Shown here piece by piece: positions 14,043 through 29,576 of a DNA stretch of 63,096 nt. A model generated the notes under the pieces. That model saw nothing but the letters and a program-made list of their open reading frames with translations. It was not told the DNA's origin and ran no database searches. This stretch comes from an uncultured virus (IMG/VR IMGVR_UViG_3300043811_000078) (lineage: Duplodnaviria; Heunggongvirae; Uroviricota; Caudoviricetes): the IMG/VR virus record IMGVR_UViG_3300043811_000078, one strand, 5' to 3'. Position 1 is the first letter of the stretch. Each line of letters opens with the position of its first letter. Both the position numbers and the translations under genes were made by a program.

Positions 14043-14079
14043 CCGGCCACCCCCCACGTCACCGGGCGGTCGCCCAGGG

Positions 14080-14613: not shown

Positions 14614-14710
14614 CTGCCCCGGACGCAAGAAATCCCCGGACGCACACGGCTCCGGGGACACTTCTGCTTACCTGAGAGAGATGTTATGGGCTGGACGGCT
14701 GATGTTCAAG

Positions 14711-15670
14711 TCACGCCGCGCGGTGGCCTGCGAGTTTGCACGAGCACGACGGCCAGCAGCAGTTACCGCAGTCACCGCGATCGCAGCGGCGGCAGGTCAG
14801 CACCCCCGACCCGCGCGTCCACGCGACATACATGGCGGTCCACGCGTCGTACTCGGTACGGGTCATCACAGCCTTGCAAGACGCGGACAGGCAGGCACAG
14901 AAAGGCGGCTCGGGCTTCTCCGGATCCGGCGGCGGCTGCTCCAGCCTCGCCAGCGACGACATCTCCTCGCATGACCGGCACGGGACGCCTTCGAGGATCT
15001 CCGGGGGCGCGGGCGTCTCGCCGAGCAGCCGGGAGGCGCTGCGGTGCAGGTCGAGGATGTCCAGGCCGGCGGCGGTCCCCCCGAGGCGCGTCTGCGCGCT
15101 CACCCAGCCATCGCCGATGAAGATGATCTCCAGGTCCGCTATCTCCGCTTCGAGCTCGGCGGGCATCGGGGAGCCTGCCCGCCACGTCCACGTCCGGCTC
15201 ATCCACCCGTCCGCGAGAGCCAGCAGCGGGACGGGGTGGGTGACGAGGACGCCGCAGTCGGCTCCGACCGCTTCAAGGGTGCCGTGCGGGTGCCTGTTGG
15301 GTACGAGCCTGAGGCCGGGGACGGCGCGGACTCTCGCGGCCCATCCGCCGAGGATCGCGGCCATGAGCCGCAGCAGGGCGTCGTAGTCGCCGTTGACCAG
15401 GACACGGGATCCGGGAGGGACGCGGACGGCGCGGCCCGAGCGGACCGGGTCGCCGATACGGGCCGCGAGCCGCCGGTAGGCATCAGGAAGGGCGCGGGCG
15501 TCGGCGAGGATCTTCGCTTCGTCGGCGAGGCAGAACGCGCGCGGGCCGGACGCGGGATGCCAGGTGCCGTCGTCGTCGCGGGTCTGCGACGAGCACCAGT
15601 CCCCTCTCGCGCACGGGCGCTGCCCGTCATCTGACGTGACCGGGTACCGGTACTGCCGCCGCGCCGCCAT
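14711..15670 (-). CDS. Zn-finger phage protein, possible late-gene regulator
   Basis: GVPCRSC...CLSASC zinc ribbon; lies upstream of the HTH, fibre and terminase genes. Confidence 0.55.
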   Translation of the reverse strand: MAARRQYRYPVTSDDGQRPCARGDWCSSQTRDDDGTWHPASGPRAFCLADEAKILADARALPDAYRRLAARIGDPVRSGRAVRVPPGSRVLVNGDYDALLRLMAAILGGWAARVRAVPGLRLVPNRHPHGTLEAVGADCGVLVTHPVPLLALADGWMSRTWTWRAGSPMPAELEAEIADLEIIFIGDGWVSAQTRLGGTAAGLDILDLHRSASRLLGETPAPPEILEGVPCRSCEEMSSLARLEQPPPDPEKPEPPFCACLSASCKAVMTRTEYDAWTAMYVAWTRGSGVLTCRRCDRGDCGNCCWPSCSCKLAGHRAA

Positions 15671-15722
15671 GCGCCCATGATCACGCACGGCACTGACCTG
15701 CGCAAAACGCCACGCGGGGGAC

Positions 15723-15764
15723 GCGGCCCCCAGGTCAGGGGGTTGACCGGAGGCCGCGCTTTCT
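15723..15764. terminator. GC-rich hairpin, possible intrinsic terminator
   Basis: CGCGGCC..GGTCA / TGACC..GGCCGCG followed by CTTTCT; lies between the conjugation-like block and the late arm. Confidence 0.4.
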
Positions 15765-15832
15765 CCGACGTCTAGACGCTACAGGAAGGCGCGGCGGGAA
15801 CGGGATGCGGCACGCTCATCACGCCAGGCAGG

Positions 15833-16126
15833 TCAGTCATCTTCCATCAGCCGGTACACAACACGGGACAGGCGCTCCCAGATCTCGCAGAGGTGCTCGT
15901 AGCGCGGATCCGTGCCGCTGGTCTTCCCGGCCTCGCGGAACAGCGTGAGCATGTCCTGAACAGGCAGCGTGATCCCGGACTCGGTCTCGCTGCGCACCGT
16001 CCAGTCGGCGACGGGGATGATGCCGTGGATCACGGCGAGGGTCGCCGTGCTGGTCACGACGGTGATGGCGGCGACTTTCTCGTCGTCGTCCAGGGCGATG
16101 GACGCCAGCCGGAACTTAGCTGCCAA
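15833..16126 (-). CDS. Hypothetical protein
   Basis: GAGGAGGAG ribosome-binding site before TTG; last gene of the leftward block. Confidence 0.55.
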   Translation of the reverse strand: MAAKFRLASIALDDDEKVAAITVVTSTATLAVIHGIIPVADWTVRSETESGITLPVQDMLTLFREAGKTSGTDPRYEHLCEIWERLSRVVYRLMEDD

Positions 16127-16147
16127 GATCTCCTCCTCGCGATGCCT

Positions 16148-16858
16148 TCACCGCGCCAGGCGCGCGGCGAGATGGACGTGAACGACAGCGAGGCCCTGGA
16201 CATCCCGCCACGCCAGCCACCCGAGAGCGACAGCCAGCAGCGGGGTGACGATGACATGCTCGGGCCACGTCCCGGTCGTGAAGGCGAGCGGGCGGGGCAG
16301 CAGGCGGAACCGGCGCCTGCTCAGCGGGTAGAAGACCATGCAGCCGGACTCGGTCAGCATGTCCCCGGCGATGTGCGTGCAGCAGCCGAGCGCCACCGCG
16401 AGCGGGATCAGATTCAGCCCGTAGCCGTACTTGATCTCGGCCGCCGCGACCGCGATGCCGATCAGGTCGGCCACGTGACCGCGGGCGATCCGCAGTGCCT
16501 CGAGCGCGCCCGCGACCGGCAGCGTCATGAGCAGCGCCAGCCCGGCCCTCCCCGCGATATCGGCACGGTAGTGACACGAGACCCAGGCCAGCGCGGTGAA
16601 GATCACGACTCCGGGAAACGAGTGCGTCGCGTGCCGGTGGCCGCCGCTGATCTTGCCGCATACCCGCGCCACCGCCTCGGATATGAAACCGAGACTGCGG
16701 GCCGCTGACGAACCGCACTTGTCCAGGTCCGGCAGAAGCGCCATGCCCGCGGTGAACCCGGCGAGCGCCGCCGCCTCCGGGGCGCCGTAGCGGAGCCAGA
16801 TCCCGGCGGCGAGTCCCGTGACCGCGCCCGAGAGCGCATGGGTATGCCCGACGCACAC
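16148..16858 (-). CDS. YdjM-family membrane-bound metal-dependent hydrolase
   Basis: TH, LLPDLD, HRHATHS and HIAGDMLTESG motifs. Confidence 0.85.
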   Translation of the reverse strand: MCVGHTHALSGAVTGLAAGIWLRYGAPEAAALAGFTAGMALLPDLDKCGSSAARSLGFISEAVARVCGKISGGHRHATHSFPGVVIFTALAWVSCHYRADIAGRAGLALLMTLPVAGALEALRIARGHVADLIGIAVAAAEIKYGYGLNLIPLAVALGCCTHIAGDMLTESGCMVFYPLSRRRFRLLPRPLAFTTGTWPEHVIVTPLLAVALGWLAWRDVQGLAVVHVHLAARLAR

Positions 16859-16888
16859 GTCAGGACTCCCCGTCCTCTTCCAGGTAGC

Positions 16889-17839
16889 TCATGACCGGTC
16901 CTCCCCGCGGTCCTGGACCGGATCCGAGGACCGGTCATCAACGATGTCACGGGGGCGGTCCCGTGCGTTCAGCTTGCGCAGGGTCTTGCGGGCGTAGCCG
17001 TCGCTGCAACCGGTCCTCTCGACGAGTTCCGGGGCACGCACCTCACGCCCCGACTTGGCTGCTTCGTCGAGGATCTCCAGGATCTTCGCCTCGATCGTCA
17101 TGGCCTCAGGACCGGTCTCGGAACCGGCCTTAGGACCGGTCCTGGCTGACGACCTGGGACCGGTCTTGCGTCCGCGAGGACCGCCCTTGGCGGCGTCGAG
17201 TTTCCGGGCGAGAACTTCCGCGTCCGCGACCGCCCTGGCGGCTTCCGCGCGGGCCGCCGAGAGGTCGTCCGCGAGCTTCCCGGCGGCGGCTTCGGCTGTG
17301 ATCCGCGCCTCCCGTTCGGCGTCCATCTCGGCACTGAACGCGGCTCGCAGCGCGGCGTCACGCTGGGCTTGCGCGGCGGCTTCCGCGGCTTCGTCCGCGG
17401 CGCGCGGCCCGTTCATGATGAAGAACGCGGCGAGCAGTTCGGCGGCGTCCAGCAGCGCGCCGAACAGCAGCGAGAAGTGGGGCGGCGCGGCGTACATGAC
17501 GACAGCCCCGGTGCCGCTCGCCGACATGTACATCGAGCCGAGCATGATCGTGTACGCGACGCCCTTCGCCACCCACGAGGATGCGTGCCACTCGGCGACG
17601 ATCTCCAGGATGAGCATCGCGATGAGCAGCGGCATGATGCCGTAGAGGATGGCCAGCGGCCATGGCATGTGGCCGCGGGTAACGGAGTGGAAGACCTGGA
17701 ACGCCATGGTGGTGCCGCCCATGGCGAACGTGACGATCCATGCGGCGATCCACGCGCGGCGCAGCGGGCCGCCCTTCCCTGCGGAGTGAACACCCATACG
17801 GTTCATCGTCGCGTTCCCTTCATGATCATTTCGGCTCAT
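16889..17839 (-). CDS. Spd-like (SpdB/DUF2637-type) membrane protein with coiled coil and C-terminal HTH
   Basis: Four hydrophobic segments, Ala/Glu coiled coil, RAPELVERTGCSDGYARKTLR; lies near traB. Confidence 0.6.
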   Translation of the reverse strand: MSRNDHEGNATMNRMGVHSAGKGGPLRRAWIAAWIVTFAMGGTTMAFQVFHSVTRGHMPWPLAILYGIMPLLIAMLILEIVAEWHASSWVAKGVAYTIMLGSMYMSASGTGAVVMYAAPPHFSLLFGALLDAAELLAAFFIMNGPRAADEAAEAAAQAQRDAALRAAFSAEMDAEREARITAEAAAGKLADDLSAARAEAARAVADAEVLARKLDAAKGGPRGRKTGPRSSARTGPKAGSETGPEAMTIEAKILEILDEAAKSGREVRAPELVERTGCSDGYARKTLRKLNARDRPRDIVDDRSSDPVQDRGEDRS

Positions 17840-18480
17840 CACGCAACATCCCTGGTCAGGAAGTCGCCGGAGTACGGCACGGCACGGATCCCGCGCCGCC
17901 GGATCAGGTCGGCGACCTCCTTGTACGTCTCGGCGATGTCGTCGGGCACCTGCCGCATGCAGTTGGCCGCCGCGGCGAGCTTGCGGCCGGCGGCGGCGAG
18001 GATCTCCAGTGCGGCCTCGCAGTCGCTCATGGCGTCCGCGGCGTCCTTCATCCGCTGCTCCGCGGTCTCGATCTCGGCTGCTGCGGCGTCCCGTACGGCC
18101 TGCTCCCCGGATCCGAGCCCGGCTTCGGCGCGGCGCGCGGCTTCCCGCGCCTCCGCGTAGTCGCTCTCGGCGCGTTCCCCGGTCTCGGCGCAGGTCACGG
18201 CCATGTCCTGGGCGTGCCTGAGCATCCCGGCGAGTTCGGCTTCGAGTTCCTCGCACCGGGCCAGGAGCGTCGGGCCGTCCGGCACGGGGCCGTCGCGTCC
18301 CCATAGCTGCCTGCGGGCGTCGCCGTCGGTGAGGGTGACGGCGGCCTGCACGATGCTGCGGGTGGCGGCGGGGTCGACGCGGGCACGCCAGGCGGCGGTG
18401 TCCATCCCGGCGGCACGGAAACCGGGCTCGCGGATGTCCTCGGCGAACGCCTCTGCGGCGGCGGTCCATGTGGCGGTCAC
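17839..18480 (-). CDS. Coiled-coil hypothetical protein
   Basis: Ala/Glu-rich helical ORF; TGATG-coupled to the next gene. Confidence 0.6.
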   Translation of the reverse strand: MTATWTAAAEAFAEDIREPGFRAAGMDTAAWRARVDPAATRSIVQAAVTLTDGDARRQLWGRDGPVPDGPTLLARCEELEAELAGMLRHAQDMAVTCAETGERAESDYAEAREAARRAEAGLGSGEQAVRDAAAAEIETAEQRMKDAADAMSDCEAALEILAAAGRKLAAAANCMRQVPDDIAETYKEVADLIRRRGIRAVPYSGDFLTRDVA

Positions 18481-18514
18481 GCCCCCCTCCCCCGGCTACG
18501 GTGAGTGACCGCCA

Positions 18515-18606
18515 TTGGCCGGCCGGCCAAGTTGGCCGGCGCTCCCGCGCGCGCGCATAGGGGCGACGAAACATGTTGGCCGGCCGGCCAAGCCTCTTGG
18601 CTGGCG
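18515..18606. repeat. Two perfect 16-bp palindromes TTGGCCGGCCGGCCAA plus half-sites downstream of traB
   Basis: Copies at 18515-18530 and 18576-18591; half-sites TTGGCCGGC at 18532-18540 and TTGGCTGGC at 18598-18606. Confidence 0.85.
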
Positions 18607-18607
18607 T

Positions 18608-20701
18608 TCACGATCCGTCACCGCCATCCGTGACGAGACGCCACCGGGCGAGCGCTGCTTTCCCGTGGACGTATGCCTTCTTCTCGTAGCGGAGGCGGTT
18701 CAGGTAGAGCATGACCGCATTGCGCGTCGGCTTGTCGGCGGGGAAGTCTTCGGCGAGGGCGTCGACGATGCGGCGTCCGCTCATCCCTTCCCCGGCAAGG
18801 TAGGTGAACAGTTGTTCACGGATAAGCGGAGGGATCTCCGTTTGCCGTGCGGCCTGTTCCCACCGGGCCTCTGCCATCTCGGCTTCCTTCCCGGGGTTGC
18901 CGTCCGGGGCAGCCGCCCTCATGGCCGCGGTCTCCTCATGGGTCTTGCGCAGGCCCGCGAGCTTCGCGTCGAGGGCGGAGAATGCCGCGTTGTCGGCGGG
19001 GTCCATCGTCATGGTCTTGTCCAGGTGCCTCAGGTAGTCGTCGTCGGTCAGGAGCGCGCCCGGCTGTACCGCGGTGCCGGGGCTGCCGGGGGGAGGGGGC
19101 GCCGCGGCACGGACGGTGACGGGGGCGGAGGTGCCGTCGCGGCGGTGGGTGAGTGCCCATTTCGCGTACACGTCGGTGCTCAGGAGAATTTCATACTTTT
19201 CCCCTAGGAATTCCCGGCAATCGGGGTGGAGGTCCGGCTGCCAGTGCGCCCGCTCCGCGACGATCGCCTGGATATCCCGCACCTCGTCCAAGTCGAACGA
19301 CCGGCCCTTGGTGTATCCCGCGCCAGGCGACGTGATCGCCCACCCGCCGGGGCGGCCACCTGTGTACGCCGCGATGTCCGGGAGCTGGTAGCCGGCACTC
19401 CCCGCCGCATGGTAGATCTCGCTGTCCCGGCCGACCGCCCCGACGCACACCACGTCATCCTGGGAGCGCATCTTCGCCGAGCCGTAGTCCTGCGTCCCGC
19501 GCTGCCCGGCACGGACCGGGTTCACGCCGAACTGGCGCCCCTTCGTCGCCACGTCGTCCATCTGCCTGGCGAGATTCGGGGCCGACTTTGCCGAGTCTGC
19601 CTCGTCGAAGATGATGAAGACCGCGGGGTCCTGCGGGGAGGGGACGTACTTGCGGCCCGCGTACCGGGCGGCACGCCACGCGATGATGCCCTTGGCGATC
19701 TCCAGCACCCGGGCGGCCCTGGCCGCCTGGTGCGGGCCGAACGCCGTCAGGTGGCACGCGGGTCCCCACCGCTCCGCTTCCGACAGCCCCACGTCGGACA
19801 GGTTGATCCGGAACTGGATCGCGTCGCCAGCTTTGGTGATGCGCTCGCTGAGGCAGTTCAGCAGGACCGTTTTGCCCATGCCGCGCCGGGCCGTGAAGCT
19901 GACGCTCTTGCCGCCGATCTCGTCGTACAGCGTGATCGACAGCAGCTCCCCGCTCGCCGGGTCCTGGCCGACGACCGCGGGCTCCATGATGCTGTACGGG
20001 CCCGACAGGTCGATCTCCGGGGCGTCATCGAACAGCGGGTGCGGGACCGGGTGCTTCCACGGATCGTCGTACTCGATGCTGATCTCAACGAGACCGGGGC
20101 GCACGGACCGGATCTGGACGCGCTCCATGTCGAGTCCCTCGTGTTCGGCAATGTCCTCCCTGAGGTTCCGGTTCCCGGCGACCGCGCTGGCGCGCCTGCC
20201 GCTGCCTTTCGTCCAGACGAGGTACCGCTCGCCGACCCTGGTTCTCCCGTAGTCCTTCAGGTGCGTGCCGTGCAGCCCCCAGCTCCGGGACTTCTCCAGC
20301 CATCCGGCGCGGGCCAGCCGCTTGTCCCGTGCCTCCACGACCGCCTCGTGCCGGTGGGCGAGCTTCCACGCGGTGATCGCCGTCACGCCCCACCCCCAGG
20401 TGAGGGGGGCGTACGGCCATCCTGCGAGCGGCCCGGCATTTACCGCGAACGCCATCCACGCCCCGCCGAAAGCGGTCCACGACGGGAGCCGCCACGTCCA
20501 GCCCTTCTTCGCCGCGACGCCGTAGGCGACAGCGGTCCCCGTGGCCGCGACCAGGGTGATGTCGAGCGAGCCGGGCCACGCGCAGGCGTGCATGATCTCC
20601 GCCGCGCCCCACACCAGGCCGGAGACGGGCAGCACGGCACGCGCCGCCCGCTCGGCGGGGGCGCGGCGCAGGTTCGCCGGGGTGATCTCGGGCTCGGTCA
20701 C
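18608..20701 (-). CDS. traB: FtsK/SpoIIIE-family TraB-like conjugative dsDNA translocase
   Basis: N-terminal TM helices, VVGQDP, Walker A ARRGMGKT, Walker B IIFDEA, KGRQFGV..AGQR, C-terminal winged helix. Confidence 0.8.
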   Translation of the reverse strand: MTEPEITPANLRRAPAERAARAVLPVSGLVWGAAEIMHACAWPGSLDITLVAATGTAVAYGVAAKKGWTWRLPSWTAFGGAWMAFAVNAGPLAGWPYAPLTWGWGVTAITAWKLAHRHEAVVEARDKRLARAGWLEKSRSWGLHGTHLKDYGRTRVGERYLVWTKGSGRRASAVAGNRNLREDIAEHEGLDMERVQIRSVRPGLVEISIEYDDPWKHPVPHPLFDDAPEIDLSGPYSIMEPAVVGQDPASGELLSITLYDEIGGKSVSFTARRGMGKTVLLNCLSERITKAGDAIQFRINLSDVGLSEAERWGPACHLTAFGPHQAARAARVLEIAKGIIAWRAARYAGRKYVPSPQDPAVFIIFDEADSAKSAPNLARQMDDVATKGRQFGVNPVRAGQRGTQDYGSAKMRSQDDVVCVGAVGRDSEIYHAAGSAGYQLPDIAAYTGGRPGGWAITSPGAGYTKGRSFDLDEVRDIQAIVAERAHWQPDLHPDCREFLGEKYEILLSTDVYAKWALTHRRDGTSAPVTVRAAAPPPPGSPGTAVQPGALLTDDDYLRHLDKTMTMDPADNAAFSALDAKLAGLRKTHEETAAMRAAAPDGNPGKEAEMAEARWEQAARQTEIPPLIREQLFTYLAGEGMSGRRIVDALAEDFPADKPTRNAVMLYLNRLRYEKKAYVHGKAALARWRLVTDGGDGS

Positions 20702-21000
20702 CCGGTGCCACCCCCGGTGATGAAGCGGTAGTACCCGTCGGCCCGGACGAGGAACTGGGCAGGCGACAGGGTGCCGGGCCGTGCTGCGGTGTTGTCGTGC
20801 GCCCGCTGCATGGCGGCCATGCGGCACCGCAGGTCTGTACTGTCCGCAGCCGAGGATGCCCACTCGAGCAGCGGTGCCGAGCTGTCCAGGACCTGCCGGG
20901 TATCGGCCCGGTCCGCGTGCGTGAGCAGCCAGCTGGCGAACCTCAGTATGTCGGCCCGCTGGCCGGGGCTGACGGTTACGGGTGCAGTGGCCTGGTTCAT
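20698..21000 (-). CDS. Hypothetical protein
   Basis: ATG at 21000; GTGA overlap with traB. Confidence 0.55.
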   Translation of the reverse strand: MNQATAPVTVSPGQRADILRFASWLLTHADRADTRQVLDSSAPLLEWASSAADSTDLRCRMAAMQRAHDNTAARPGTLSPAQFLVRADGYYRFITGGGTG

Positions 21001-21023
21001 GATTGCTCTCCGTTTCGCGATGC

Positions 21024-21221
21024 TCAGTCGTGGCGGTGCCGGAGGTTCCATGCCGGGTACGATTCGGCGCGCAGCCGACCCCGGAACCGGACCCTCACGC
21101 TCCCGTCGTTGCGGCGGCCGCGGCTGACGACGATGCCGACGCGGCCCGGGACCGTGCCGCCGTACGTGGGAAGCGTCTGCACCCGGGTGCCGCGGGGAAA
21201 CGGCTCTGCTCGCTTGCTCAT
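21024..21221 (-). CDS. Small basic beta-rich (SH3/KOW-like) protein
   Basis: FPRGTRV..GRVGIVV..SVRVRF. Confidence 0.5.
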   Translation of the reverse strand: MSKRAEPFPRGTRVQTLPTYGGTVPGRVGIVVSRGRRNDGSVRVRFRGRLRAESYPAWNLRHRHD

Positions 21222-21556
21222 GGGTTCCTTTCCGATGCGTTAGCGCGGATCTTGTCCAGCACGGCGAGGATGGCGAGCGCGCCCATCGCGGACGCGAGGG
21301 CCGCCGAGGTGACCAGTGCCGAGCCGAATGTCTCATCGGTGCACAGCAGCGCCAGGCAGGCGGTTCCGCCGAGGCCCGCGCCGGTCCCGGCGATGCCGCG
21401 CCACGGGAAGCCGCCGCGGCGCACCCGCCGGCCGCCGCGGACGATCAGCACGGGGACCGTGATCACGAGGCCCAGGGCCGACAGCGCGGTGACCGCGGGG
21501 TCTATCCCCGCGGCGAGCAGCAGCACGCAGGCGCATGCCGTTCCCGCGGTGATCAC
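21218..21556 (-). CDS. Membrane protein
   Basis: About four hydrophobic segments; overlapping starts and stops. Confidence 0.55.
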   Translation of the reverse strand: MITAGTACACVLLLAAGIDPAVTALSALGLVITVPVLIVRGGRRVRRGGFPWRGIAGTGAGLGGTACLALLCTDETFGSALVTSAALASAMGALAILAVLDKIRANASERNP

Positions 21557-22419
21557 GCCGCCTCGCCTCCCGCCGCAAAGAACTTGCGGGCGTCGAACGG
21601 CAGGACGGTGCCGTTCTCGACGGCCCTCATCACGTCGCCGTAGATCGCCTCGAACCGCTTCTCCACCTGGATCACGGCCCCGGTCAGCTCGGCCACCTCG
21701 TCGGCGAACTCGGCATGGCCCGTCCCGTAGGACGGGTCGAGGCCGACAGTGTTGACGAGGGTGTCGGTGCGGGCGCGGATCGCCTCGGCCCACGCGAGGA
21801 TCCCGGAGGCTTCCTCGGCCATGTGCTGCCGGAGGTCACCGGCGTCCTCGGGCTCGAAGTCGGCGGCGCGCTGGCAGACGGCGATCCACTCGGGGGGTAC
21901 CGGGACGCCGTCGATGATCTGCGCGGTCTCGTCAGCCCCCGGTACGGGGCCGAGCTCAGGGTCGTTGCGGAACGAGGGAACGTCACGGGGCGGCGGTGCC
22001 GTGCCTGCGGCTGGCTGCGGCTGCGCCTGGGCGGGGGCGGCGCTGCCGTCGCGGCGCCGGCTGGTCAGGCCGCGGACGTGGAGCGCGAGCCCGCGGGCGT
22101 CCTCGATGAGGAATGCCCGGAGGATGAGCCGGCCCGCGCTTCTGTCATCGCGGCGGACGGCGCGCTCCCTGCGCGTGTCGCGGACGATCAGGATCACTGT
22201 CGGGATGCCGGCGAAGGCCGCGAGCATCGCTCCCTGCGCGATCCCGGGCAGCCCGGTGACGGTCAGCCCGATCAGGGTGAGGGTGAGCCACCCGGTGACA
22301 TGCCCCCACCACCCGGAGGACTTCCAGGCGGCGGGGATCCGGGTCATGTGCACAGCCTGGGAGACGAACACCGCTGCGCAGTACAGGGTGACCGCCCACG
22401 CGATCAGGGTGATGATCAT
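21553..22419 (-). CDS. Membrane-anchored protein with helical C-domain (possible TraA-like transfer accessory)
   Basis: Three TM segments, Pro-rich linker, helical domain; upstream of traB. Confidence 0.5.
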   Translation of the reverse strand: MIITLIAWAVTLYCAAVFVSQAVHMTRIPAAWKSSGWWGHVTGWLTLTLIGLTVTGLPGIAQGAMLAAFAGIPTVILIVRDTRRERAVRRDDRSAGRLILRAFLIEDARGLALHVRGLTSRRRDGSAAPAQAQPQPAAGTAPPPRDVPSFRNDPELGPVPGADETAQIIDGVPVPPEWIAVCQRAADFEPEDAGDLRQHMAEEASGILAWAEAIRARTDTLVNTVGLDPSYGTGHAEFADEVAELTGAVIQVEKRFEAIYGDVMRAVENGTVLPFDARKFFAAGGEAA

Positions 22420-22423
22420 CGGG

Positions 22424-22600
22424 CTAGCTGCCTTCTTCCCGGCGTCCGCAGCACCGGCAGCGCCAGAGCCGCACGGTCTTCTTCTTGAGGGTTGACCAGG
22501 TCTTGCGCCGGGTGCGGCGCAAGCGTCCGCGGCACCCCGGGTTCCAGGCTTGGTGGCGGCGCGAGGCGCAGTCCGCGCACGGCCGCGAGAGGATGTTCAT
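22424..22600 (-). CDS. Small basic Cys-rich protein
   Basis: CADC...WRCRCC; TGATG coupling. Confidence 0.45.
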   Translation of the reverse strand: MNILSRPCADCASRRHQAWNPGCRGRLRRTRRKTWSTLKKKTVRLWRCRCCGRREEGS

Positions 22601-23172
22601 CAGCAGACCTCCTCGTATCCGCCGTCGGACCAGGTGGAGAACTCGGCGGCGAACCCGTAGCCGCACAGGCCGGTCCCGGCCCGGAGCGCGGCGGCGATCA
22701 GCGGGTAGTTCCCGTTGGCGAGGGTCGCGGCGTCGGCCTCGGCCCCTTCGCTGGCGTCGGGGTAGCTCTGGACGTGCAGCCCGTCGCCGAAGCTGTTGAA
22801 GTCCCACGACCCCGGTTCCCGCAGGATCGAGTCGAGGGGGTTCCACTGCGCGAGAGACGGCCAGGGTTCCTCGTGCGGGAGCCATGCGTCCAGGCTGGCC
22901 AGGTTGGCCTGGGTGGCGGGCGCGCCGAGGTCGGCCAGGAGCGCCCGCCAGAACGCTGTCTCGCTGCCGGAGGTCACCGGCGCGGCCTGGGTCGCCGTCG
23001 TGCGGGGCGCGGCGGCGTGGTGGCGGACGACCGTGACGGTCTTCGCCCCGGCCCCCGCGATGGCGACAGCAGCGATGGCGATGCCCGCGATCATCTCCCG
23101 GCTGCCGCCCCGCTTGCCGGATCCGCGGCGGAACCGGCGCGGGGGGCGGTACCGGTACGGACGGGCGCCCAT
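22600..23172 (-). CDS. Exported lysozyme-like/transglycosylase-like protein
   Basis: Basic N-terminus and hydrophobic anchor; ALLADLGAPATQAN..WNPLD..VQSY..G..AATLANGNY..I.AALR pattern resembles actinobacterial cell-wall hydrolase domains. Confidence 0.5.
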   Translation of the reverse strand: MGARPYRYRPPRRFRRGSGKRGGSREMIAGIAIAAVAIAGAGAKTVTVVRHHAAAPRTTATQAAPVTSGSETAFWRALLADLGAPATQANLASLDAWLPHEEPWPSLAQWNPLDSILREPGSWDFNSFGDGLHVQSYPDASEGAEADAATLANGNYPLIAAALRAGTGLCGYGFAAEFSTWSDGGYEEVC

Positions 23173-24527
23173 CAGTGCATCGCCTCCCGTCGCTTGCGCC
23201 ACCGTCGCGGGCCGAACAGGATCCACAGCGCGCCGGACGCGCACCATGCCGCGAGGATGATCAGTGCCGTGGTGTGCGACGGGAACCACGACGGCCAGTA
23301 CAGCGGACCCCAGGAGTGCGACGTGACGGCGTGCGGGCAGCACGACGGGTACGGACCGCAGTAGTCGGTACCGGGCTTGGCCGTAGGCCAGTACGCGCCG
23401 GGGGGGCCGGGCATCGGCCGGCACGGGTCGCCGGTGATCACGGCCGCACCCGGAAGATCTCCGTGAACCCCGCGGCGATGCCTCCGCTGTTGAGGGTCTT
23501 CGCGTGGTCGCGGGCGCGGGACCGGGCGAACTCACCGGAGTACGTGGCGACGTAGCACCCTTCCTGGTAGTCGAAGACGCCCCAGCGCCAGTAGCGGCCC
23601 CGGCGCCTGAGATCCGGCTTGACCGCCTTGTACCGCGTGGCCATCAGTGCCTCCCGTCGCGGTCATCTGACCGGTAGACCCGGTTCTGGTGCTCGTTCTG
23701 CCAGCGGAGTGCGCAGGCCCCGGCGACGACGGCGGCGATGATGACGGCAGCTACCAGCAGGTGCACCGGTCAGCCCTTCTTCCTGTTCCTGAGCCACTTG
23801 CGCAGCCTCCAGGCGGCGTAGACGGCGAAGGCGATGACGGCCAGCAGCAGCCAGCCGCTCGTACTGGACTGGTGCGCGGCCTGCGCGGCGAGGATCATGT
23901 TCACCGCGCGCCTCCCGTCAGCGAGCGGTGCCTGTCCGTGGCGTGCTGCCATGCGGCGTCACCCCGGTAGACGCGGGTCCACTTCGACAGTGCCGAGTCA
24001 TAGACACCCCAGGAGCCGCCTCCGGCACCCTGGACCGTGTAGCGCCTGCGCATCCGGTCGCTCTTCGGGATGCCGCGCATCGCCCTGCGCCATCCCCAGA
24101 CCCGTCTGGCGCGCCCGGCGAGCACCACGACGGCGGACGCCGCCGCGACGTAGGCGACGCTGATGACGTACGTCGCGGCGGAGTCCAGCCCGCGGGGATG
24201 GTCGTGGATGAACCACGCCGGAGGGGCGGCAATGAACAGGAATGCCGTCCACGCAGCAATTTCGTTCCGTGCCATGGCTCACCGCCCCCCGCCGATGCTG
24301 CTGCCGTAACGGGGGCGCGCCGTTCCCGGCCCCGGCTCCGCCTTCTTCGGGCGCGCCAGCCACGCGAGCACGCCGAGGCTGGCGAGCAGGATGACCGCGT
24401 ACACGGCCAGCGCCGCCGTGTGCGGCGAGCCGTGAGCGGGCATGATCTTCGGCCAGCTGTGCACGAGGGACGGGATCACGATCCCGGCGTTGGCGGCGAC
24501 GATGACGCCGCCGATGATGAACTTCAC
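23172..24527 (-). other. Chain of six tiny, mostly single-TM ORFs (23172-23441, 23438-23644, 23644-23766, 23770-23904, 23901-24275, 24279-24527)
   Basis: Tightly coupled starts and stops; hydrophobic helices with basic tails. Confidence 0.55.
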
Positions 24528-24545
24528 GGTGGTTCCTTCCGGTGG

Positions 24546-24953
24546 TTACGCGGCGACTGGCGTCGCGGCAGGTTGCTGGGCGCTGGCACGGAGCCGGCGG
24601 TGTTCATGTGCGGCTTCCGCCGCGTCCTGCCTCGCGTAGAACCGGGCGTCGTCGGCGGCGATGACGGTCTCGGCGTCCGTCCGGGTCGCGATCTGCCCGA
24701 TGCCGGGCCGGCGCCGCTGCCGCTCGCTGAAGCCGCCCCAGATGCCCCACTGCTCGCGGCCGGCAGCGGCGTACAGGAGGCAGTCAGGGCGCACCTGGCA
24801 TGACCGGCATACCGCCTTCTGCCGGTCGGCTGGCTCGCCGACCTCCGGGTAGAACGCGTCCGGGTCGGTGTACTGGCAGGCGGCCAGCGCCATCCACGGC
24901 GGGGCGCCCGGGGACGCGTCGCCGGGGCGCGGCGGCCAGAGGCGGCCGGTCAT
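24546..24953 (-). CDS. whiB: WhiB-family Fe-S transcriptional regulator
   Basis: AACQYTDPDAFYP..KAVCRSCQVRPDCL..GIWGG. Confidence 0.92.
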   Translation of the reverse strand: MTGRLWPPRPGDASPGAPPWMALAACQYTDPDAFYPEVGEPADRQKAVCRSCQVRPDCLLYAAAGREQWGIWGGFSERQRRRPGIGQIATRTDAETVIAADDARFYARQDAAEAAHEHRRLRASAQQPAATPVAA

Positions 24954-25303
24954 GACGCGGCCTTCCGCCGGTGCTCGCCGTCGCGGGCGCACTGAGCGCA
25001 CCTGCCGTCAGCGCGGCGGCTGGCCGCGGTGAGCGCGTGCAGTTTCTTCCGGCACAGGGGGGCAGGCGCGGGGCGCCGCATCTGCCGGCGTTCGGTGCCG
25101 GAGGTGCCGCCCCAGATCCCGGCGGGGACGCGTGCGGCGAGCGCGAACGCGAGGCAGGCACCCTGGACGGGGCATCCGGCGCAGACGGCTTTGGCTTCGG
25201 CGGCTACGCGCCAGTCGGAGGTGTAGAACATGTCAGGGTCTTCGCCGGCGCACGCCCCTGCGGCGCGCCAGTCGGTCACCTGGTCCAGGGTCGCGGCGCT
25301 CAT
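24950..25303 (-). CDS. whiB: WhiB-family regulator with C-terminal Zn finger
   Basis: GACAGEDPDMFY..AKAVCAGCPVQGACL..GIWGG, then CRKKLH...CAQC. Confidence 0.92.
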   Translation of the reverse strand: MSAATLDQVTDWRAAGACAGEDPDMFYTSDWRVAAEAKAVCAGCPVQGACLAFALAARVPAGIWGGTSGTERRQMRRPAPAPLCRKKLHALTAASRRADGRCAQCARDGEHRRKAAS

Positions 25304-26038
25304 GACGTCACCGCGTTCTCGCCGGCGGCGATGACGGCGATGGCGTCGAGGATGACCCGGAACGCCCTCCGCTCGGCTGACGGCAGCGTGTTCGCGGCGA
25401 AGGTCGCGTCGAGCAGCGGGCCGACCGCGCCGTCGAGGCCGTCTCCGGCTTTCAGGACGGCGAGGGACGCGCCGTCGAGGGCGGTCCACAGTGCGGACCG
25501 TCGCGGGGTGGAGGCTCGCGTGCTGTCCAGTTCGACGGCGAGGAGGATGTTCGTGAGCGCCGTGGCGAGCCTGGTGTGGCGGGCGGCTGCGCGGGCGGCG
25601 GCGATGCCGGCTTCGCGGCGGGCGTCCCGCGCGAGGGCGGGGCGTCCCGATCCTGCCTCGTCGATGGCGGTGGCGGCGCAGTTGAGGGTGTCGTAGAGGT
25701 CGGGGGCGCTGGTCATGACCGGCTCCTGTCCCGTGCCCGGTCGCGGGCCTCGCGGTCGGCGTCGGCTTCTATGTCGCGGATGTCGCGGGTGACGCCGGCG
25801 TCGCGGGGTGCCTGGGAGAGCCCGTAGGCGGCGCTGCGCATCCGCAGGGACAGGTCTGCCAGCTCGGGTCCGGTGAGCTTCCCAAAGAGGCTCATGACGA
25901 CGGGGCGGGCGTGACGGTCGCGACGTGCATGATCGCGCCGAGGCGGCCGGGGGTGTTGAGCCCGTGGGCTTCGAGGACGGCTTCGAGATCCTCGCGCAGC
26001 TCGTCCGTGTCCGGGGCATGTGTTAGGGTCATCGTCAT
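25300..26038 (-). other. Three small hypothetical ORFs (25300-25716, 25713-25895, 25892-26038)
   Basis: ATGA overlaps throughout. Confidence 0.5.
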
Positions 26039-26067
26039 GTCCTTCCTGTGAGTGGAAGTGATCCTCG

Positions 26068-26106
26068 GCAAGCCCGGCGGTTCGATCGCCGGGCTTGCTC
26101 TCGTTT
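26068..26106 (+). terminator. Intrinsic terminator-like hairpin
   Basis: GCAAGCCCGGCG-GTTCGAT-CGCCGGGCTTGC followed by TCTCGTTT. Confidence 0.55.
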
Positions 26107-26263
26107 ACGGGGTTACTTCGAGCCGGACCCGTGATAGGGGCAGCCCACGAACGGGTTGGCGCACATGGGGGCGCTCCGTTCGTGATGGTGGCGCGGCGGC
26201 GCGGCATGCCTTTCCAGGCGTTGCGCTGATCGCGGCGCGAGACGCGGGTGTTCTGGGGTCGCA

Positions 26264-26470
26264 TCAGAACCGCACCGCCTTGGCCTGGCATCCGGGGTTG
26301 TCGGCGGGGATGGCTGCGGCGTACCGCTCGGCCTTCTGCTTTGAGGCGAGCGCGGCGTGGATGCGCCGCGAGGTCAGGTACCCGTCGCCGCCGAGGAACA
26401 GCCAGCGCTTCGCGCCGGGCTCTTTCACCTTTACGGCGTACGCCGGGCCGTCGAAATCGAGGAGACCCAT
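26264..26470 (-). CDS. Hypothetical protein
   Basis: ATG one base after the Xis-like stop codon. Confidence 0.55.
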   Translation of the reverse strand: MGLLDFDGPAYAVKVKEPGAKRWLFLGGDGYLTSRRIHAALASKQKAERYAAAIPADNPGCQAKAVRF

Positions 26471-26471
26471 C

Positions 26472-26771
26472 TCACGCCACCCCTTCGGTGATGGTGTTGC
26501 TGGCCGCCCATGTGCGGCAGAAGTCACGGAGCTCCACCTGACCGCCGGACATGACCGCCGCGCGGAGGTCGTCGGCTAGGCGGCGCGGCAGCCAGTGAGT
26601 GTTCCGCTTGGCCCCGGCGATCCGCATGGACGGCATGACGCCCTCGTTGCAGAGCTGGTTGATCAGCGACGAGGAGAAGGGCAGCAGGTCGGCGAACGCG
26701 CCGATGGTGAGCCAGTCACCATCCGGCTTTGCCGTCGTCTCCGCAGTCTCAGTCACTTGCGCCGTCCTCAT
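26472..26771 (-). CDS. Excisionase-like (HTH_17/AlpA) DNA-binding protein
   Basis: WLTIGAFADLLPFSSSLINQLCNEGVMPSMRI; first gene of the leftward block. Confidence 0.65.
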   Translation of the reverse strand: MRTAQVTETAETTAKPDGDWLTIGAFADLLPFSSSLINQLCNEGVMPSMRIAGAKRNTHWLPRRLADDLRAAVMSGGQVELRDFCRTWAASNTITEGVA

Positions 26772-26799
26772 GGTCGGTGGCCTGCCTGCCATCTACGCG

Positions 26800-26889
26800 A
26801 TCAGTAAATACCAGGGTTGACGGCCTGTCAAGGGCACTCTTTACGGAGCCGTCAAGGGACCCGTTGATCCCGGCGTCTATGCTCGGTAT
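26800..26889. promoter_or_regulatory. Divergent promoter/operator region
   Basis: Palindrome TTGAC-N5-GTCAA at 26817-26831 contains a minus-strand TTGACA; a second GTCAAG half-site follows; TATGCT at 26878-26883 lies 6 nt before ATG 26890. Confidence 0.6.
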
Positions 26890-27657
26890 ATGAGCGAGCA
26901 GGGCGACGAGGACCGCTTCATGGCGACTCTCGCCGCCATGCGCGAGGCATGGCAGCTGACACGGGAGCAGCTGGACGCGCTCACTAGCCCGCTGCGCCAG
27001 TTCAACGAGGCAACGTCGCTTGCGGAGGAGCTGAGATCCATGAGCGGTGAGGCGGCCATCCGCCGCGCGGTCGCCGCCGCGCGTCTCCAGGACGCCGGGT
27101 TGTCCCTGGCGGAGATCGGCGGGGTCCTGGGCAACATCTCGAAACAGCGCGCCGGGGAGCTGGCCAAGAAGGGCCAGGACGTCATCAGGGCACTGGCGGC
27201 AGCCGGTGCCGCCGGGGAAGAGGATTACATGACCGGACCATCGACAGCGCCCGAGCCTGAGCCCGTGGTCGCGGCCATCGTGATCAGCGACCTCGGGGTC
27301 CTGATCGCGCGGCGCAACGACGGGAAACCGCCGTGGACGTTCATCGCCGGGAAGATCGAGCCCGGCGAGTCGCCGGCCGACGCCGCCGTCCGCGAGGTCA
27401 AGGAAGAGACCGGGCTGCGCATCCGCGCCGGCGGCGTCATAGGCCGGCGGGTACATCCCCGGACGGGGCGCACCATGGTCTACATGGCGGCACGCCCCAC
27501 TCACGGGACCGAGGTGACCGTGGGCGATCCGGAGGAGCTGGCCGAGGTGCGGTGGGTGAGCTTCGAGGAAGCGGACAGCCTCACGGGCGGGACGATCTTC
27601 GAGCCGGTACGGCAGCACTTGCGGCACATGCTCGGGAACGGCAACGGCGGAGAGTAG
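26890..27657 (+). CDS. HTH-Nudix hydrolase fusion (repressor/Pif-like)
   Basis: GLSLAEIGGVLGNISKQRAGEL HTH; Nudix box GKIEPGESPADAAVREVKEETGL. Confidence 0.85.
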   Translation: MSEQGDEDRFMATLAAMREAWQLTREQLDALTSPLRQFNEATSLAEELRSMSGEAAIRRAVAAARLQDAGLSLAEIGGVLGNISKQRAGELAKKGQDVIRALAAAGAAGEEDYMTGPSTAPEPEPVVAAIVISDLGVLIARRNDGKPPWTFIAGKIEPGESPADAAVREVKEETGLRIRAGGVIGRRVHPRTGRTMVYMAARPTHGTEVTVGDPEELAEVRWVSFEEADSLTGGTIFEPVRQHLRHMLGNGNGGE

Positions 27658-27675
27658 GGGCGCTGGCTGCGGACC

Positions 27676-27909
27676 CTAGGCCCTCCGGTCAACGCGCACG
27701 ATGACGATGGTGCCGTCCTCGATCTCGTACAGGATGCGGAAATCGCCCGCGCGCAGCCGCCGGTAGCCGCCGCGCACGAACGCGGCGGCCGGTCCGGGAT
27801 CTTCGGCTAATGAGTCGACGGCGGCGTTGATTGCCGCCATCGCGGCCTGGTCCTTCATGAACTTCTCGCGTACCGCGAGCTTCGCCGGCTCTTCCCAGCG
27901 GATCCTCAC
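27676..27909 (-). CDS. relE: RelE/ParE-family toxin
   Basis: YRRLRAGDFRILYEIED; GTGA overlap with the antitoxin gene. Confidence 0.85.
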   Translation of the reverse strand: MRIRWEEPAKLAVREKFMKDQAAMAAINAAVDSLAEDPGPAAAFVRGGYRRLRAGDFRILYEIEDGTIVIVRVDRRA

Positions 27910-28160
27910 CGGCTGCCGCCGAGCAGTTCCGCCCTGACTTCCTCGTGGGGGATGGTGCCCCCGGGACGCCCTGCGGCCTTCCATGCCTCGTGCTCGGTGA
28001 TCCACGCGTCTGTCCACGCCTCGTCGATCTCTTCCGGCGCGGCGCGCCTTTTGAGGGCGGCGAGGACGATGTACTCGTCGTAGGGGACGACGACGGCTTT
28101 CTCGCCGCCGACCTGTATCACGTTGGGGAGTCCCGCGCTCTCTGCTGGTTCGGCGCTCAT
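27906..28160 (-). CDS. Phd/YefM-like antitoxin
   Basis: GEKAVVVPYDEY...TIPHEEVRAEL; acidic; upstream of the toxin. Confidence 0.8.
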   Translation of the reverse strand: MSAEPAESAGLPNVIQVGGEKAVVVPYDEYIVLAALKRRAAPEEIDEAWTDAWITEHEAWKAAGRPGGTIPHEEVRAELLGGSR

Positions 28161-28364
28161 GAGGGCATCGTAACGCGGCGGCGGGTCGCGGGGTACGATG
28201 CCAAGCGGATACGCTGAGCGCGTTCGACAACTTAAACGAAGCGGCCCCGACCGGTGCGTCAACACCGAGACGGGGCCTAGGAACCAGACCCCATGGAGGT
28301 CGGGAACCATGATCAGTGATCGTACTAGTTACGCGCCCCGAGCACGCCTCCGGGCCTGACGCGC

Positions 28365-29030
28365 GTGGGTCATGACCTGACCCGGATGCTCCGCGCCGGG
28401 ATGCCGCCCGACTGGACGGCCGGGGAACGCGTCGTCGCGATGATCCTTGCCGATGTCTGCAACGACCGGACGCGGCGCGGCTACATCTCCAACGAGCAGC
28501 TCTGCGAGGAATCCGGGCTGGAGCCGGGCAGCCTGCGCTCGATCCTGGCGCGGCTCGGGAGGCACGGCTTCGAGTTGCGGGTTCCGCTGTCTACCGGCAA
28601 GGACGGGCGTCCCGTGTACGCGACGAGCGGTCGCTGTCGCGGCGGACGGGCGGTTACTTACGAGTGCCCGATCCTGGTGCCGCGCGAGGCTAAAGACGCA
28701 ATCCTCATCTCGTCTTTCGATGACGAGGCTGTGGATAACCTGTCTCCGGAGCCGCCGAAAGGCGCAACCGTGAGCGCACCTTTGCCGGAAAGGCGCAACG
28801 CTGGTTGCGAAAGGCGCAACGAGGGCAGCGCCCATACCCCTGGAACCCCACAAGCTTTTATCCCCGACCAGACTTCTGCGGTTCCCCGTCTGACAACGTC
28901 CGTGAAAGGTGCGCGCGTGCGCGAGGTGAGCCCGGACGAGTTCGAGGCGGAGCGGAAACGGCAGATGGACGCGCTCCAGGCACTGATCCGTGAACAAGAC
29001 GGCGGCAACCGCCGCCAGGAGAGGAACTGA
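28365..29030 (+). CDS. Phage replication initiator-like wHTH protein (Rep1)
   Basis: WTAGERVVAMILAD..ND..G...S.EQLCEESGL pattern; internal DnaA box and iterons. Confidence 0.6.
   Translation: MGHDLTRMLRAGMPPDWTAGERVVAMILADVCNDRTRRGYISNEQLCEESGLEPGSLRSILARLGRHGFELRVPLSTGKDGRPVYATSGRCRGGRAVTYECPILVPREAKDAILISSFDDEAVDNLSPEPPKGATVSAPLPERRNAGCERRNEGSAHTPGTPQAFIPDQTSAVPRLTTSVKGARVREVSPDEFEAERKRQMDALQALIREQDGGNRRQERN
28730..28820. promoter_or_regulatory. Putative origin 1: DnaA box plus iterons
   Basis: TGTGGATAA at 28730-28738; GAAAGGCGCAAC at 28757, 28788 and 28809. Confidence 0.65.
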
Positions 29031-29032
29031 CC

Positions 29033-29554: not shown

Positions 29555-29576
29555 GCCTGACACCGGATACGGAAGG

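Follow-up and report, generated by a model that had tools for sequence, protein, structure and literature searches.

A predicted FtsK-like DNA pump and candidate transfer genes upstream of the terminase and portal genes of a tailed phage

A block of candidate transfer genes lies upstream of the packaging genes

Streptomyces-type conjugation, in which one FtsK-like pump moves double-stranded DNA (dsDNA), is known from plasmids and from the integrative and conjugative elements of actinomycetes (AICEs). Here, we analysed a stretch of 63,096 nucleotides from an uncultured virus (IMG/VR record IMGVR_UViG_3300043811_000078), referred to in its full length as the window, in which the original prediction, made from the sequence alone, had placed a TraB-type conjugation module within a tailed-phage genome. 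Open reading frames (ORFs) were called via third-position G+C (GC3). Together with the translations, these calls showed that about 20 minus-strand genes span 26756 to 15833, upstream of the terminase and portal genes and co-oriented with both, as had been proposed; ~6.9 kb separate the end of this block from the terminase gene. The block encodes a protein of 697 amino acids (aa), called the pump below, and several proteins with transmembrane (TM) helices. Its genes are as follows.

26472-26756, minus strand: small protein (94 aa), weakly HTH_17-like (E 0.19), first gene of the block
Between the 26472-26756 gene and the WhiB pair, minus strand: several small ORFs without assignment
24950-25489 and 24546-24953, minus strand: tandem pair of WhiB regulators (Pfam Whib, 3.4e-20 and 1.7e-17)
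24279-24527, minus strand: small membrane protein, 2 TM (hydropathy scan)
23901-24275, minus strand: small membrane protein, 1 TM (hydropathy scan)
22600-23172, minus strand: membrane-anchored protein, 190 aa (alignment and model)
21553-22419, minus strand: 2-TM protein, 288 aa, with a conserved C-terminal domain (alignment, tblastn)
21218-21526, minus strand: small 2-TM protein, 102 aa (hydropathy scan)
18608-20701, minus strand: predicted FtsK-fold pump, 697 aa (motifs, AlphaFold, Foldseek, hhalign)
17839-18480, minus strand: coiled-coil protein, 213 aa (translation; tblastn homologues)
16889-17839, minus strand: 4-TM protein, 316 aa, with a coiled coil and a C-terminal tail like a helix-turn-helix (HTH)
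16148-16858, minus strand: YdjM-family membrane-bound metal-dependent hydrolase, 236 aa (Pfam YdjM 1.7e-24; phrog_20744 7.1e-20)
15833-16126, minus strand: small protein, 97 aa, one hydrophobic helix, last gene of the block (hydropathy scan)

The phage gene arm beyond the block, and the gene that diverges from it, are given next.

14711-15670, minus strand: Cys-rich protein of DNA-binding type (phrog_1568, 4.2e-10)
14359-14607, minus strand: small MerR/HTH_17-like protein (HTH_17, 0.0032)
9801-14057, minus strand: beta-helix/NosD-type protein, 1418 aa
9042-9662, minus strand: ORF
7392-8978, minus strand: large terminase TerL (Terminase_6N 2.9e-20; Terminase_6C 2.7e-14)
4263-7181, minus strand: portal with a C-terminal Nudix fusion (Phage_portal 3.7e-13; NUDIX 8e-16)
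1751-2359, minus strand: XkdF protease (Pfam)
1-1383, minus strand: capsid-region ORF
26890-27657, plus strand: Nudix hydrolase gene, 255 aa (Pfam NUDIX 7.9e-23, residues 125-230)

TerL, the portal and the XkdF protease are those of a tailed phage, and the capsid-region ORF is similar to its counterpart in a complete related record of 132 kb (G004), in which 34 of the 83 window proteins have colinear homologues (portal 63%, capsid region 54% identity). The tail genes lie outside the window. According to PHROGs, G004 encodes a terminase, a portal-Nudix protein, neck and minor tail proteins, a 1154-aa tape measure, a tail fibre and an endolysin. Judged by these genes, the element is a tailed phage (Caudoviricetes), in line with the original prediction. 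Because a pump protein identical to that of the window was found on a contig of 125,096 bases, the phage genome is probably ~125 kb long; the nearest database record to the window measures 51.6 kb and is rated 41% complete.

The 697-aa protein is predicted to have an FtsK fold

The pump carries a Walker A motif (GMGKT, residues 274-278) and a Walker B motif (IIFDEAD, residues 363-369), and its G276 and K277 are invariant among 30 aligned homologues of 37-80% identity (alignment A1). This alignment was the basis of an AlphaFold model (predicted local distance difference test, pLDDT, 81) and of a sequence profile. The model places hydrophobic helices at residues 15-116, a beta domain at 147-270 and a P-loop motor at 270-490, followed by a disordered linker (523-565) and a winged helix (603-689). 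Foldseek ranked an FtsK motor first (6t8g, E 7e-13), then the conjugation coupling protein TcpA (1e-11) and EccC; HerA complexes were weaker and stood further down the list. Among PDB sequences, the A1 profile matched E. coli FtsK best (E 1.9e-4, in the Walker B/sensor region). At the N-terminus, three to four helices are predicted, with moderate Kyte-Doolittle values of 0.95-1.46 and 7 charged residues in 97. The C-terminal domain is modelled as a helix-helix-helix-beta-beta unit, and winged-helix Pfam families match the C-termini of pump-family members (HTH_29 in 18 of 30, FaeA in 16 of 30). The ATPase with a winged HTH tail that had been proposed at 18608-20701 is thus borne out by motifs, predicted fold and profile comparison.

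No family matched the pump at E<=0.01 in Pfam, PHROGs or NCBIfam. There was also no match by phmmer against PDB or, at 1e-5, by tblastn against 50,697 phage records; seven weak Streptomyces matches of 27-30% identity were obtained by tblastn against plasmids. A database search returned 105 homologues of ~700 aa, all unnamed, from metagenome contigs of up to 137 kb, and after clustering at 50% the family comprised 1217 representatives at E<=1e-3 and 190 at E<=1e-30. Despite the lack of a curated family match, the pump is, by its modelled fold, an FtsK-type translocase. Some homologues, including P0017, P0167, P0200, P0207 and P0211, are 1074-1281 aa long, and their match to the profile is split near profile position 280, just past Walker A; P0017 has a LAGLIDADG (PF14528) match. 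These long proteins probably carry an intein within the P-loop, a situation known from essential phage ATPases.

To place the family between conjugative TraB/Tra proteins and chromosomal FtsK, there being no solved TraB structure for comparison, hhalign profiles were compared with sequences from records. The A1 profile aligned with the tra product of the plasmid-phage pZL12 (pZL12.71c) with a probability of 94.5 (E 7.5e-8, 246 columns) and with pIJ101 Tra with a probability of 92.4 (E 5e-7, 226 columns, starting in the pre-motor domain). The control, the motor and gamma domains of E. coli FtsK, gave a probability of 61 (E 7.9e-5, 95 columns). BLASTP of the pump against pZL12.71c gave E 6e-5 with 27% identity over 248 aa. 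The two groups are bridged by a 713-aa protein encoded on H1, a circular Streptomyces plasmid of 90 kb, which gave E 4e-8 against the window pump and E 2e-15 against pZL12.71c; its gene is located 3 kb upstream of the genes for a terminase and a major capsid protein. As far as profiles tell, these weak signals lean the family to the conjugative Tra side rather than to chromosomal FtsK, which is the grouping that had been anticipated.

A quick IQ-TREE tree was built from 20 rows, with the fragments L011 and L025 excluded and the 458-aa piece L019 kept. Nine pumps from virus contigs, including that of the window, formed one clade (SH-like approximate likelihood ratio test, SH-aLRT, 80; 99 for an inner clade of seven rows), and its sister consisted of six chromosomal rows and L005 (SH-aLRT 95). 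L007 fell below both clades, and pZL12.71c and H1 stood on long branches towards the pIJ101 root. Because the pumps of phage and AICE contexts are sister clades, exchange between the two contexts appears to have happened.

Arrays of 8-bp repeats lie 3' of the pump gene

Throughout the 63-kb window, clusters of five copies within 300 bp are formed by just two 8-mers, trivial ones aside. Two arrays lie near the pump gene.

18490-18607, intergenic, directly 3' of the pump stop codon: array 1, clt-like repeats, with copies at 18515-18591
16893-17165, in the 3' part of the 4-TM gene: array 2, six GGACCGGTC copies, core of the palindrome GGACCGGTCC

Array 1 consists of five copies of CCGGCCAA/TTGGCCGG, which flank a spacer with a TATG/TATAG-like core, and includes two identical 16-nt palindromes (18515-18530 and 18576-18591). 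All six matches of GGACCGGTC in the window fall within 273 bp, and 2.27 are expected over the whole window.

We then determined the best 8-mer in the 200 bp past the pump stop codon at 17 loci, among which L009 and L010 are identical; L019 and L025, which have broken ORFs, were left out. At least four copies were found at 10 of the 17 loci and exactly three at five more (15 of 17 with at least three). Background windows matching the array numbered 3 of 1258 in the window (5 copies per 200 bp), 1 of 438 in L006, 2 of 439 in L010, 3 of 437 in L004 and 4 of 437 in L024, but 35 of 439 in L003. Typically, two or three copies precede a spacer with a TATAG-like core, after which further copies run in the opposite orientation. 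The 8-mer itself differs by lineage, as listed below, and arrays occur in AICE-like and phage contexts alike.

L021, L023 and L024: AATGTCCC
L022: ATCGACCC
L006: CGCTCAAG
L004: CACTCAAG
L009 and L010: CGCTCAAA
L002: AACGTGCG
L003: AATGCGTG
L007: GTGACCGG
L008: ACGTTTCC

According to the literature, clt regions contain direct 8-bp repeats that are read by the cognate TraB (Thoma et al. 2015, PMC4447253); in pIJ101 and pJV1, the clt region has inverted repeats as well as direct ones (PMC3583192). For the model AICE pSAM2, a recent survey states that the literature describes no clt motif (PMC9513070). Array 1 fits the sequence pattern described for clt, and the 8-mer arrays 3' of the pump gene are a new finding of this analysis. 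Further along, 1.2-1.7 kb past the pump gene, the window, L006, L002 and L003 have a second array, built from a different word; it is less clear elsewhere. We assign array 1 to the pump and, tentatively, array 2 to the 4-TM/HTH protein, because the 4-TM gene, in which array 2 lies, has no homologue at the chromosomal loci. A sigma-70 promoter scan gave 0 sites.

The block is conserved in related viral contigs and has relatives in AICE-like settings

Eleven IMG/VR loci, several of them cut by contig ends, encode relatives of the pump. Homologues of other window genes were found by tblastn at these viral loci as follows.

WhiB, upstream of the pump: 9 of 11
21553-22419 (2-TM protein), directly upstream of the pump: 8 of 11
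17839-18480 (coiled-coil protein), downstream of the pump: 7 of 11
22600-23172: 6 of 11
14711-15670: 6 of 11
14359-14607: 4 of 11
TerL: 2 of 11

G004 and the viral loci share the order WhiB, 22600 homologue, 2-TM gene, pump, coiled-coil gene, 14711, 14359, portal and capsid. The homologues of 14711 and 14359 follow each other in G004 (at 82.9 kb and 84.2 kb) and, in the same order, in L003, L008, L011 and L012; by this synteny, the two genes are conserved links from the pump block to the packaging genes. The related records include G002 (124.5 kb) and G003 (125.0 kb), both with terminal repeats and rated 100% complete, as well as G004 (132 kb) and G005 (107 kb). Each of these four, out of five records searched, encodes one large tyrosine recombinase far from the pump gene, and ParB_N passed the cut-off in one of the five. 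A close homologue of the window TerL was found in only 1 of 10 related records (G005), and the terminase of G004 belongs to another PHROG family; packaging genes thus seem to have been swapped within the lineage while the pump block stayed. The terminase of G004 (L030) is interrupted: in the region 7160-9531, an HNH endonuclease gene overlaps an ORF whose match to the large-terminase profile phrog_38 is confined to the C-terminal part (positions 405-711).

In a set with one genome per species, relatives of the pump were also found at seven chromosomal loci of Streptosporangiaceae and uncultured Actinomycetota. By tblastn, a homologue of the 2-TM protein lies directly upstream of the pump at all seven and a coiled-coil homologue downstream at three; at four, a Nudix gene is situated upstream and transcribed divergently from the other strand. 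A Pfam scan, which covered four of the seven, showed that L023 and L024 encode GntR/UTRA, Xis (HTH_17) and a tyrosine integrase and that L021 encodes a serine recombinase. SsgA occurs in L021, L023 and L024 and WhiB in L022, L023 and L024, and an anti-sigma-type kinase and an HTH_36 protein were also identified. A tRNA gene abuts the recombinase in L021; the borders of the elements in L021 and L023 were searched for and not found. The literature names Nudix (Pif) and GntR (KorSA) as typical AICE genes and describes Pif, the Nudix protein of pSAM2, as a conjugal immunity factor (te Poele 2008, PMC2440964). By their gene content, the chromosomal pump homologues sit in AICE-like settings. Two of these elements have CRISPR-related neighbours: an array-like region with a repeat of ~30 nt, a 61-nt period and at least 12 units (L023, 1974-2857) adjoins the Planomonospora AICE-like element, and type I-U-like Cas genes (GSU0053/0054) lie upstream of the element in L022.

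Homology and synteny indicate that the block shares ancestry with the transfer modules of Streptosporangiaceae AICEs and that it is a stable, conserved part of a lineage of temperate tailed phages of 107-132 kb from soil actinomycetes.

Proteins encoded next to the pump

Among the window proteins compared, the 2-TM protein (21553-22419) is the pump neighbour present in most loci. It matches no Pfam family, a protein-atlas search gave unnamed clusters alone, and a complex prediction of pump residues 1-500 with its C-terminal domain gave no verdict (score 0.00). The coiled-coil protein (17839-18480) has no family above threshold. The 4-TM gene (16889-17839), whose start ATG overlaps the upstream stop codon (TGATG), has tblastn homologues of 45-48% identity in L004, L006 and L011 and none at the seven chromosomal loci, and its product has no Pfam match. 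This protein had been called Spd-like; its four hydrophobic helices are present, but the label holds for the architecture only, with no similarity to pIJ101 SpdA or SpdB. The many small membrane proteins that had been noticed are there (15833-16126, 21218-21526, 21553-22419, 23901-24275 and 24279-24527); those at 24279-24527, 23901-24275 and 15833-16126 have no family matches in Pfam or NCBIfam.

A cell-wall hydrolase had also been proposed. The membrane-anchored protein at 22600-23172 is 65% identical in G004, and its E101 is invariant in an alignment of 31 sequences (A2). Its model (pLDDT 71) had no Foldseek match at E<=0.001. A wide VIA-align search gave FlgJ GH73 (Z 5.5), a glucosaminidase (5.3) and AtlA (5.2), then endolysins, all with Z < 8, and the protein-atlas search gave SLT/lysozyme clusters with scores of 0.85-0.86. 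A lysozyme-like C-terminal domain is therefore possible, a lead rather than a finding, and the protein at 16148-16858 is a YdjM membrane hydrolase. Of the proposed Xis-like HTH protein (26472-26756), the weak HTH_17 match is all that was recovered. The divergent HTH-Nudix gene has its Nudix domain, but the N-terminal 110 aa match no family. The two WhiB genes had been overlooked.

Other features of the window

Further features were annotated on the arm beyond 26890, as follows.

27676-28310, minus strand: ParE/RelE-type toxin (77 aa as called) with an antitoxin-like ORF upstream
28365-29030, plus strand: gene with a weak HTH_36 match
29499-32908, plus strand: RNA-repair set RlaP, CCA/polyA polymerase-HD and RtcB
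43127-43717 and 43828-44112: CI/Cro-like pair
60097-60420, plus strand: FtsK-gamma-only protein, 107 aa

This arm also encodes an AAA ATPase, an ERF recombinase, an exonuclease, several HTH proteins, a SpoU methylase and DNA methylases. The ParE/RelE pair, flanked by the Nudix gene on one side and the early genes on the other, shares 48-54% identity with its G004 counterpart. Within the 28365-29030 gene, three 21-nt direct repeats starting GAAAGGCGCAAC lie at 28757-28829; this iteron-like layout could mark a replication origin. The similarity of the encoded protein to the HTH_36 protein of L023 was insignificant (E 0.29). The RNA-repair cluster (an RlaP-type nucleotidyltransferase, a CCA-adding/polyA polymerase with an HD domain and an RtcB ligase) is 65-75% identical in G004 and is likely an answer to host tRNA-cleaving defences. 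The protein at 60097-60420, encoded among DNA methylase genes, comprises little beyond an FtsK gamma domain (5.6e-13), which binds FtsK orienting polar sequences (KOPS), and could interfere with or borrow the DNA recognition of host FtsK.

On the packaging arm, the Nudix domain of the portal fusion occupies residues 806-919, and the same fusion occurs in G004 (1070 aa) and in the Arthrobacter phages Sonali and Mufasa8. The phage has two Nudix genes, and the product of the portal-fused one is possibly packaged with the virion. The beta-helix gene (9801-14057) contains five tandem units of 150 nt (50 aa) at 12709-13363; it appears to have moved, because its homologue in G004 lies at the far end of the tail region (129.7-130.8 kb).

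The block is neither a complete AICE nor a recent insertion

In the 107 window ORF translations scanned with Pfam, no integrase or Rep accompanies the block, just the weakly HTH_17-like protein, and the window has no homologue of the G004 recombinase. No att-like direct repeats and no tRNA gene flank the block. This agrees with the original prediction, which had seen no integrase, RepSA or RepAM at the block and had argued against a complete AICE inserted into a prophage. It had also left room for a phage-plasmid; in the window, the Pfam scan showed no par or rep gene alongside the virion genes, and a plasmid lifestyle finds no support.

The ends of the block had been singled out for a junction check. 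The stretch 14501-24500 was recovered from 24 metagenome runs, none of them listed as RNA; seven contain at least half of its words, and four of these seven may be the source. Logan contigs from four other runs left none of the 30 bins of 12001-30000 uncovered. Single contigs bridged the left end (X5 record 2, 15222-16379; X7 record 15, 15379-15906), and the right end was bridged by X5 record 4 (18433-27786). The window has a G+C content of 71%, and composition is flat over the block region (0.68-0.74). Population variants were seen in these other soil samples: X8 has a clean 180-bp deletion (22420-22599) between the 2-TM and 190-aa genes, and X5 and X7 have 189 other letters at 23900.

A possible route for phage DNA between hyphae

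Our preferred reading, to which we give a probability of roughly 55%, is that the pump, as part of a TraB/clt module, carries phage dsDNA from one hypha or compartment to another with no need of virions. The 697-aa protein would be seated in the membrane by its N-terminal helices and form an FtsK-like ring, its C-terminal winged helix would dock on the lineage-specific 8-bp array directly 3' of its own gene, and the motor would pump unprocessed phage dsDNA through the hyphal envelope or septal cross-walls. The analysis itself establishes the predicted fold, the domain architecture, the links by homology, the conserved synteny and the repeat arrays; that the protein binds and pumps DNA, and which DNA it would move, is inferred from these. 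The 2-TM neighbour, the coiled-coil protein, the small membrane proteins and possibly a lysozyme-like wall enzyme may serve as helpers, and the 4-TM/HTH protein may also assist, possibly while docked on array 2. The WhiB pair and the divergent Nudix protein may regulate transfer or confer transfer immunity, like KorSA and Pif in pSAM2. The phage genome would in this way reach neighbouring hyphae or compartments without virions, as reported for pZL12 and pFP4.

Several results weigh against transfer of this kind. The pump had no match to Pfam FtsK_SpoIIIE (PF01580) even at E<=10, in a search that the original prediction had proposed as a check; PF01580 is also absent from the 25 Pfam families listed for 30 pump-family members, with sub-threshold matches in L021 (5.1e-4) and H1 (0.0045). 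The links between pump and Tra are weak profile matches at 23-27% identity. When all window proteins were compared with pIJ101 by tblastn, no match was below E 0.002 and none lay in spdA, spdB or kilB. The array is missing in L012 (2 copies) and L011 (1 copy), and a test of the same position found none after the tra gene of pZL12 or H1. Alternatively, the arrays could serve as operators, as a terminator or as a promoter region: the first palindrome was flagged as a weak terminator-like hairpin, and a conserved GTCACTCACCGT-like motif ahead of the next gene suggests regulation. The match between array word and recognition helix follows phylogeny and hence is not independent evidence. No integrase, Rep or Par family was detected in the 107 window ORF translations (Pfam), and about half of the phage genome lies outside the window.

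The most serious competitor, which we nevertheless regard as unlikely, is that the module serves the phage in another way: exclusion or expulsion of incoming DNA (superinfection exclusion or defence of the lysogen), mobilization of DNA of the host or of other elements, genome entry or membrane-anchored replication. FtsK/HerA-type ATPases are found in defence systems, and HerA complexes do appear lower in the fold list. PADLOC gave a weak match of the pump to mad8 (E 1.9e-5) and a match of the Nudix protein to PDC-S07 (7e-15), a ParE/RelE toxin-antitoxin pair adjoins the block, and the module stands beside regulators, not within the virion operon. However, the mad8 match covers only the P-loop (residues 243-291), with no stretch passing alone, the Nudix match is generic, and 22 of the 24 block proteins have no PADLOC match. 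By profile, the closest characterized relatives are conjugative Tra proteins, the chromosomal homologues occur in AICE-like gene sets with integrase and Xis, and a cis array beside the gene suits self-transfer better than exclusion.

We consider it less probable still that the block is a selfish AICE remnant in the phage genome, kept by descent or by its own mobilization and of no benefit to the phage. Such a remnant is predicted to lack an integrase or rep gene, as the block does, the phage and AICE-context pumps are sister clades, and the population indels described above lie inside the block. However, the pump is intact, with Walker residues invariant in all 30 aligned homologues, and the X8 deletion is intergenic by the GC3 gene calls. 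Gene order beside the packaging genes is kept where the pumps are only 31-43% identical, which argues for long-term selection within the phage lineage. Finally, an assembly artefact in the form of a chimeric contig, or an independent AICE that recently entered a prophage, which metagenome-type data and the existence of AICE-like relatives might suggest, is ruled out for practical purposes by the contigs from four other runs that bridge both ends, the flat G+C, the absence of att-like repeats and tRNA genes, and the same synteny in independently assembled relatives.

If the pump moves the phage genome between hyphae, then virus particles by themselves are an insufficient measure of phage spread, lysogeny and gene flow in soil mycelia, and host range based on plaques would understate transfer. 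More tentatively, and at odds we would put below even, a whole clade of large temperate phages of mycelial actinomycetes may keep TraB/clt as a core "movement" function, with naked dsDNA pumped through cross-walls into neighbouring hyphae after a single infection or induction. This would be a bacterial counterpart of the movement proteins of plant viruses. The repeat arrays offer a directly testable candidate docking site, and the lineage-specific 8-bp arrays, if used in this way, would be the first defined clt for an AICE-related Tra family.

Comparison with known systems

With chromosomal FtsK/SpoIIIE, the pump shares a RecA-like motor fold and a Walker B/sensor stretch like that of E. coli FtsK. 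It differs in that only 95 columns are alignable, in the N-terminal part and pre-motor domain, and in its mobile-element gene context, as opposed to a role in cell division.

The TraB/clt/Spd systems of pSVH1, pIJ101 and pJV1 resemble the window module in having a single FtsK-like pump, membrane-bound in those systems, with a C-terminal winged helix and a cis site of short (8-bp) repeats with inverted elements (PMC4447253, PMC3583192); the pIJ101 gene map also has small membrane proteins alongside and a divergent regulator gene. In contrast, pIJ101 Tra passes Pfam FtsK_SpoIIIE (9.3e-10) and the window pump fails it, no GntR gene was found in the window block (Pfam), and those systems belong to small plasmid replicons, not to a tailed phage.

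For AICEs of the pSAM2, pMEA300 and SLP1 type, the likeness lies in the pump, 2-TM and coiled-coil homologues in Streptosporangiaceae chromosomes, which stand beside GntR/UTRA, divergent Nudix, WhiB, Xis (HTH_17) and tyrosine or serine recombinase genes. The window block differs in having no integrase, att or recognizable Rep and in being embedded in conserved phage synteny.

The closest parallels are pZL12/phiZL12, reportedly described by Zhong et al. in 2010 (J Bacteriol 192:3747), and pFP4, reportedly described by Chen et al. in 2012 (Plasmid 68:170). Three reports present both as plasmid-phages that conjugate as episomes and form particles (PMC4170104, PMC3583192, PMC4487206). They were the only cases found in the literature on phages and TraB, with subscription papers outside its coverage, and they already set the precedent for a phage with a conjugative pump. 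Like the element studied here, pZL12 (GQ919031) forms virions and has an FtsK-like tra gene; its genes.73c-.72c-.71c sit immediately upstream of terminase.67c and the portal-region gene.66c and run in the same direction, a placement shared with the window, its.71c also fails Pfam FtsK_SpoIIIE, and homologues of WhiB, Nudix and Dam methylase are present. However, pZL12 is a 90-kb circular plasmid with ParA/ParB, whereas the window has no par or rep genes and the relatives of its phage are 107-132 kb long, two with terminal repeats, and have a large tyrosine recombinase. Only 5 of the 83 window proteins match pZL12 at E<=1e-2, and the neighbours of the pump genes are unrelated.

What sets the window element apart from pZL12 and pFP4 is a separate phage lineage, a pump family that is invisible to curated libraries, sister pumps borne by AICEs and a candidate docking array. 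The combination of a virion with TraB is therefore not a curiosity of 90-kb plasmids, since a separate lineage of 107-132 kb phages has it as well, and the pump family concerned, very divergent and missed by curated libraries, is nonetheless large, with AICE-borne sisters and a gene position near the packaging genes.

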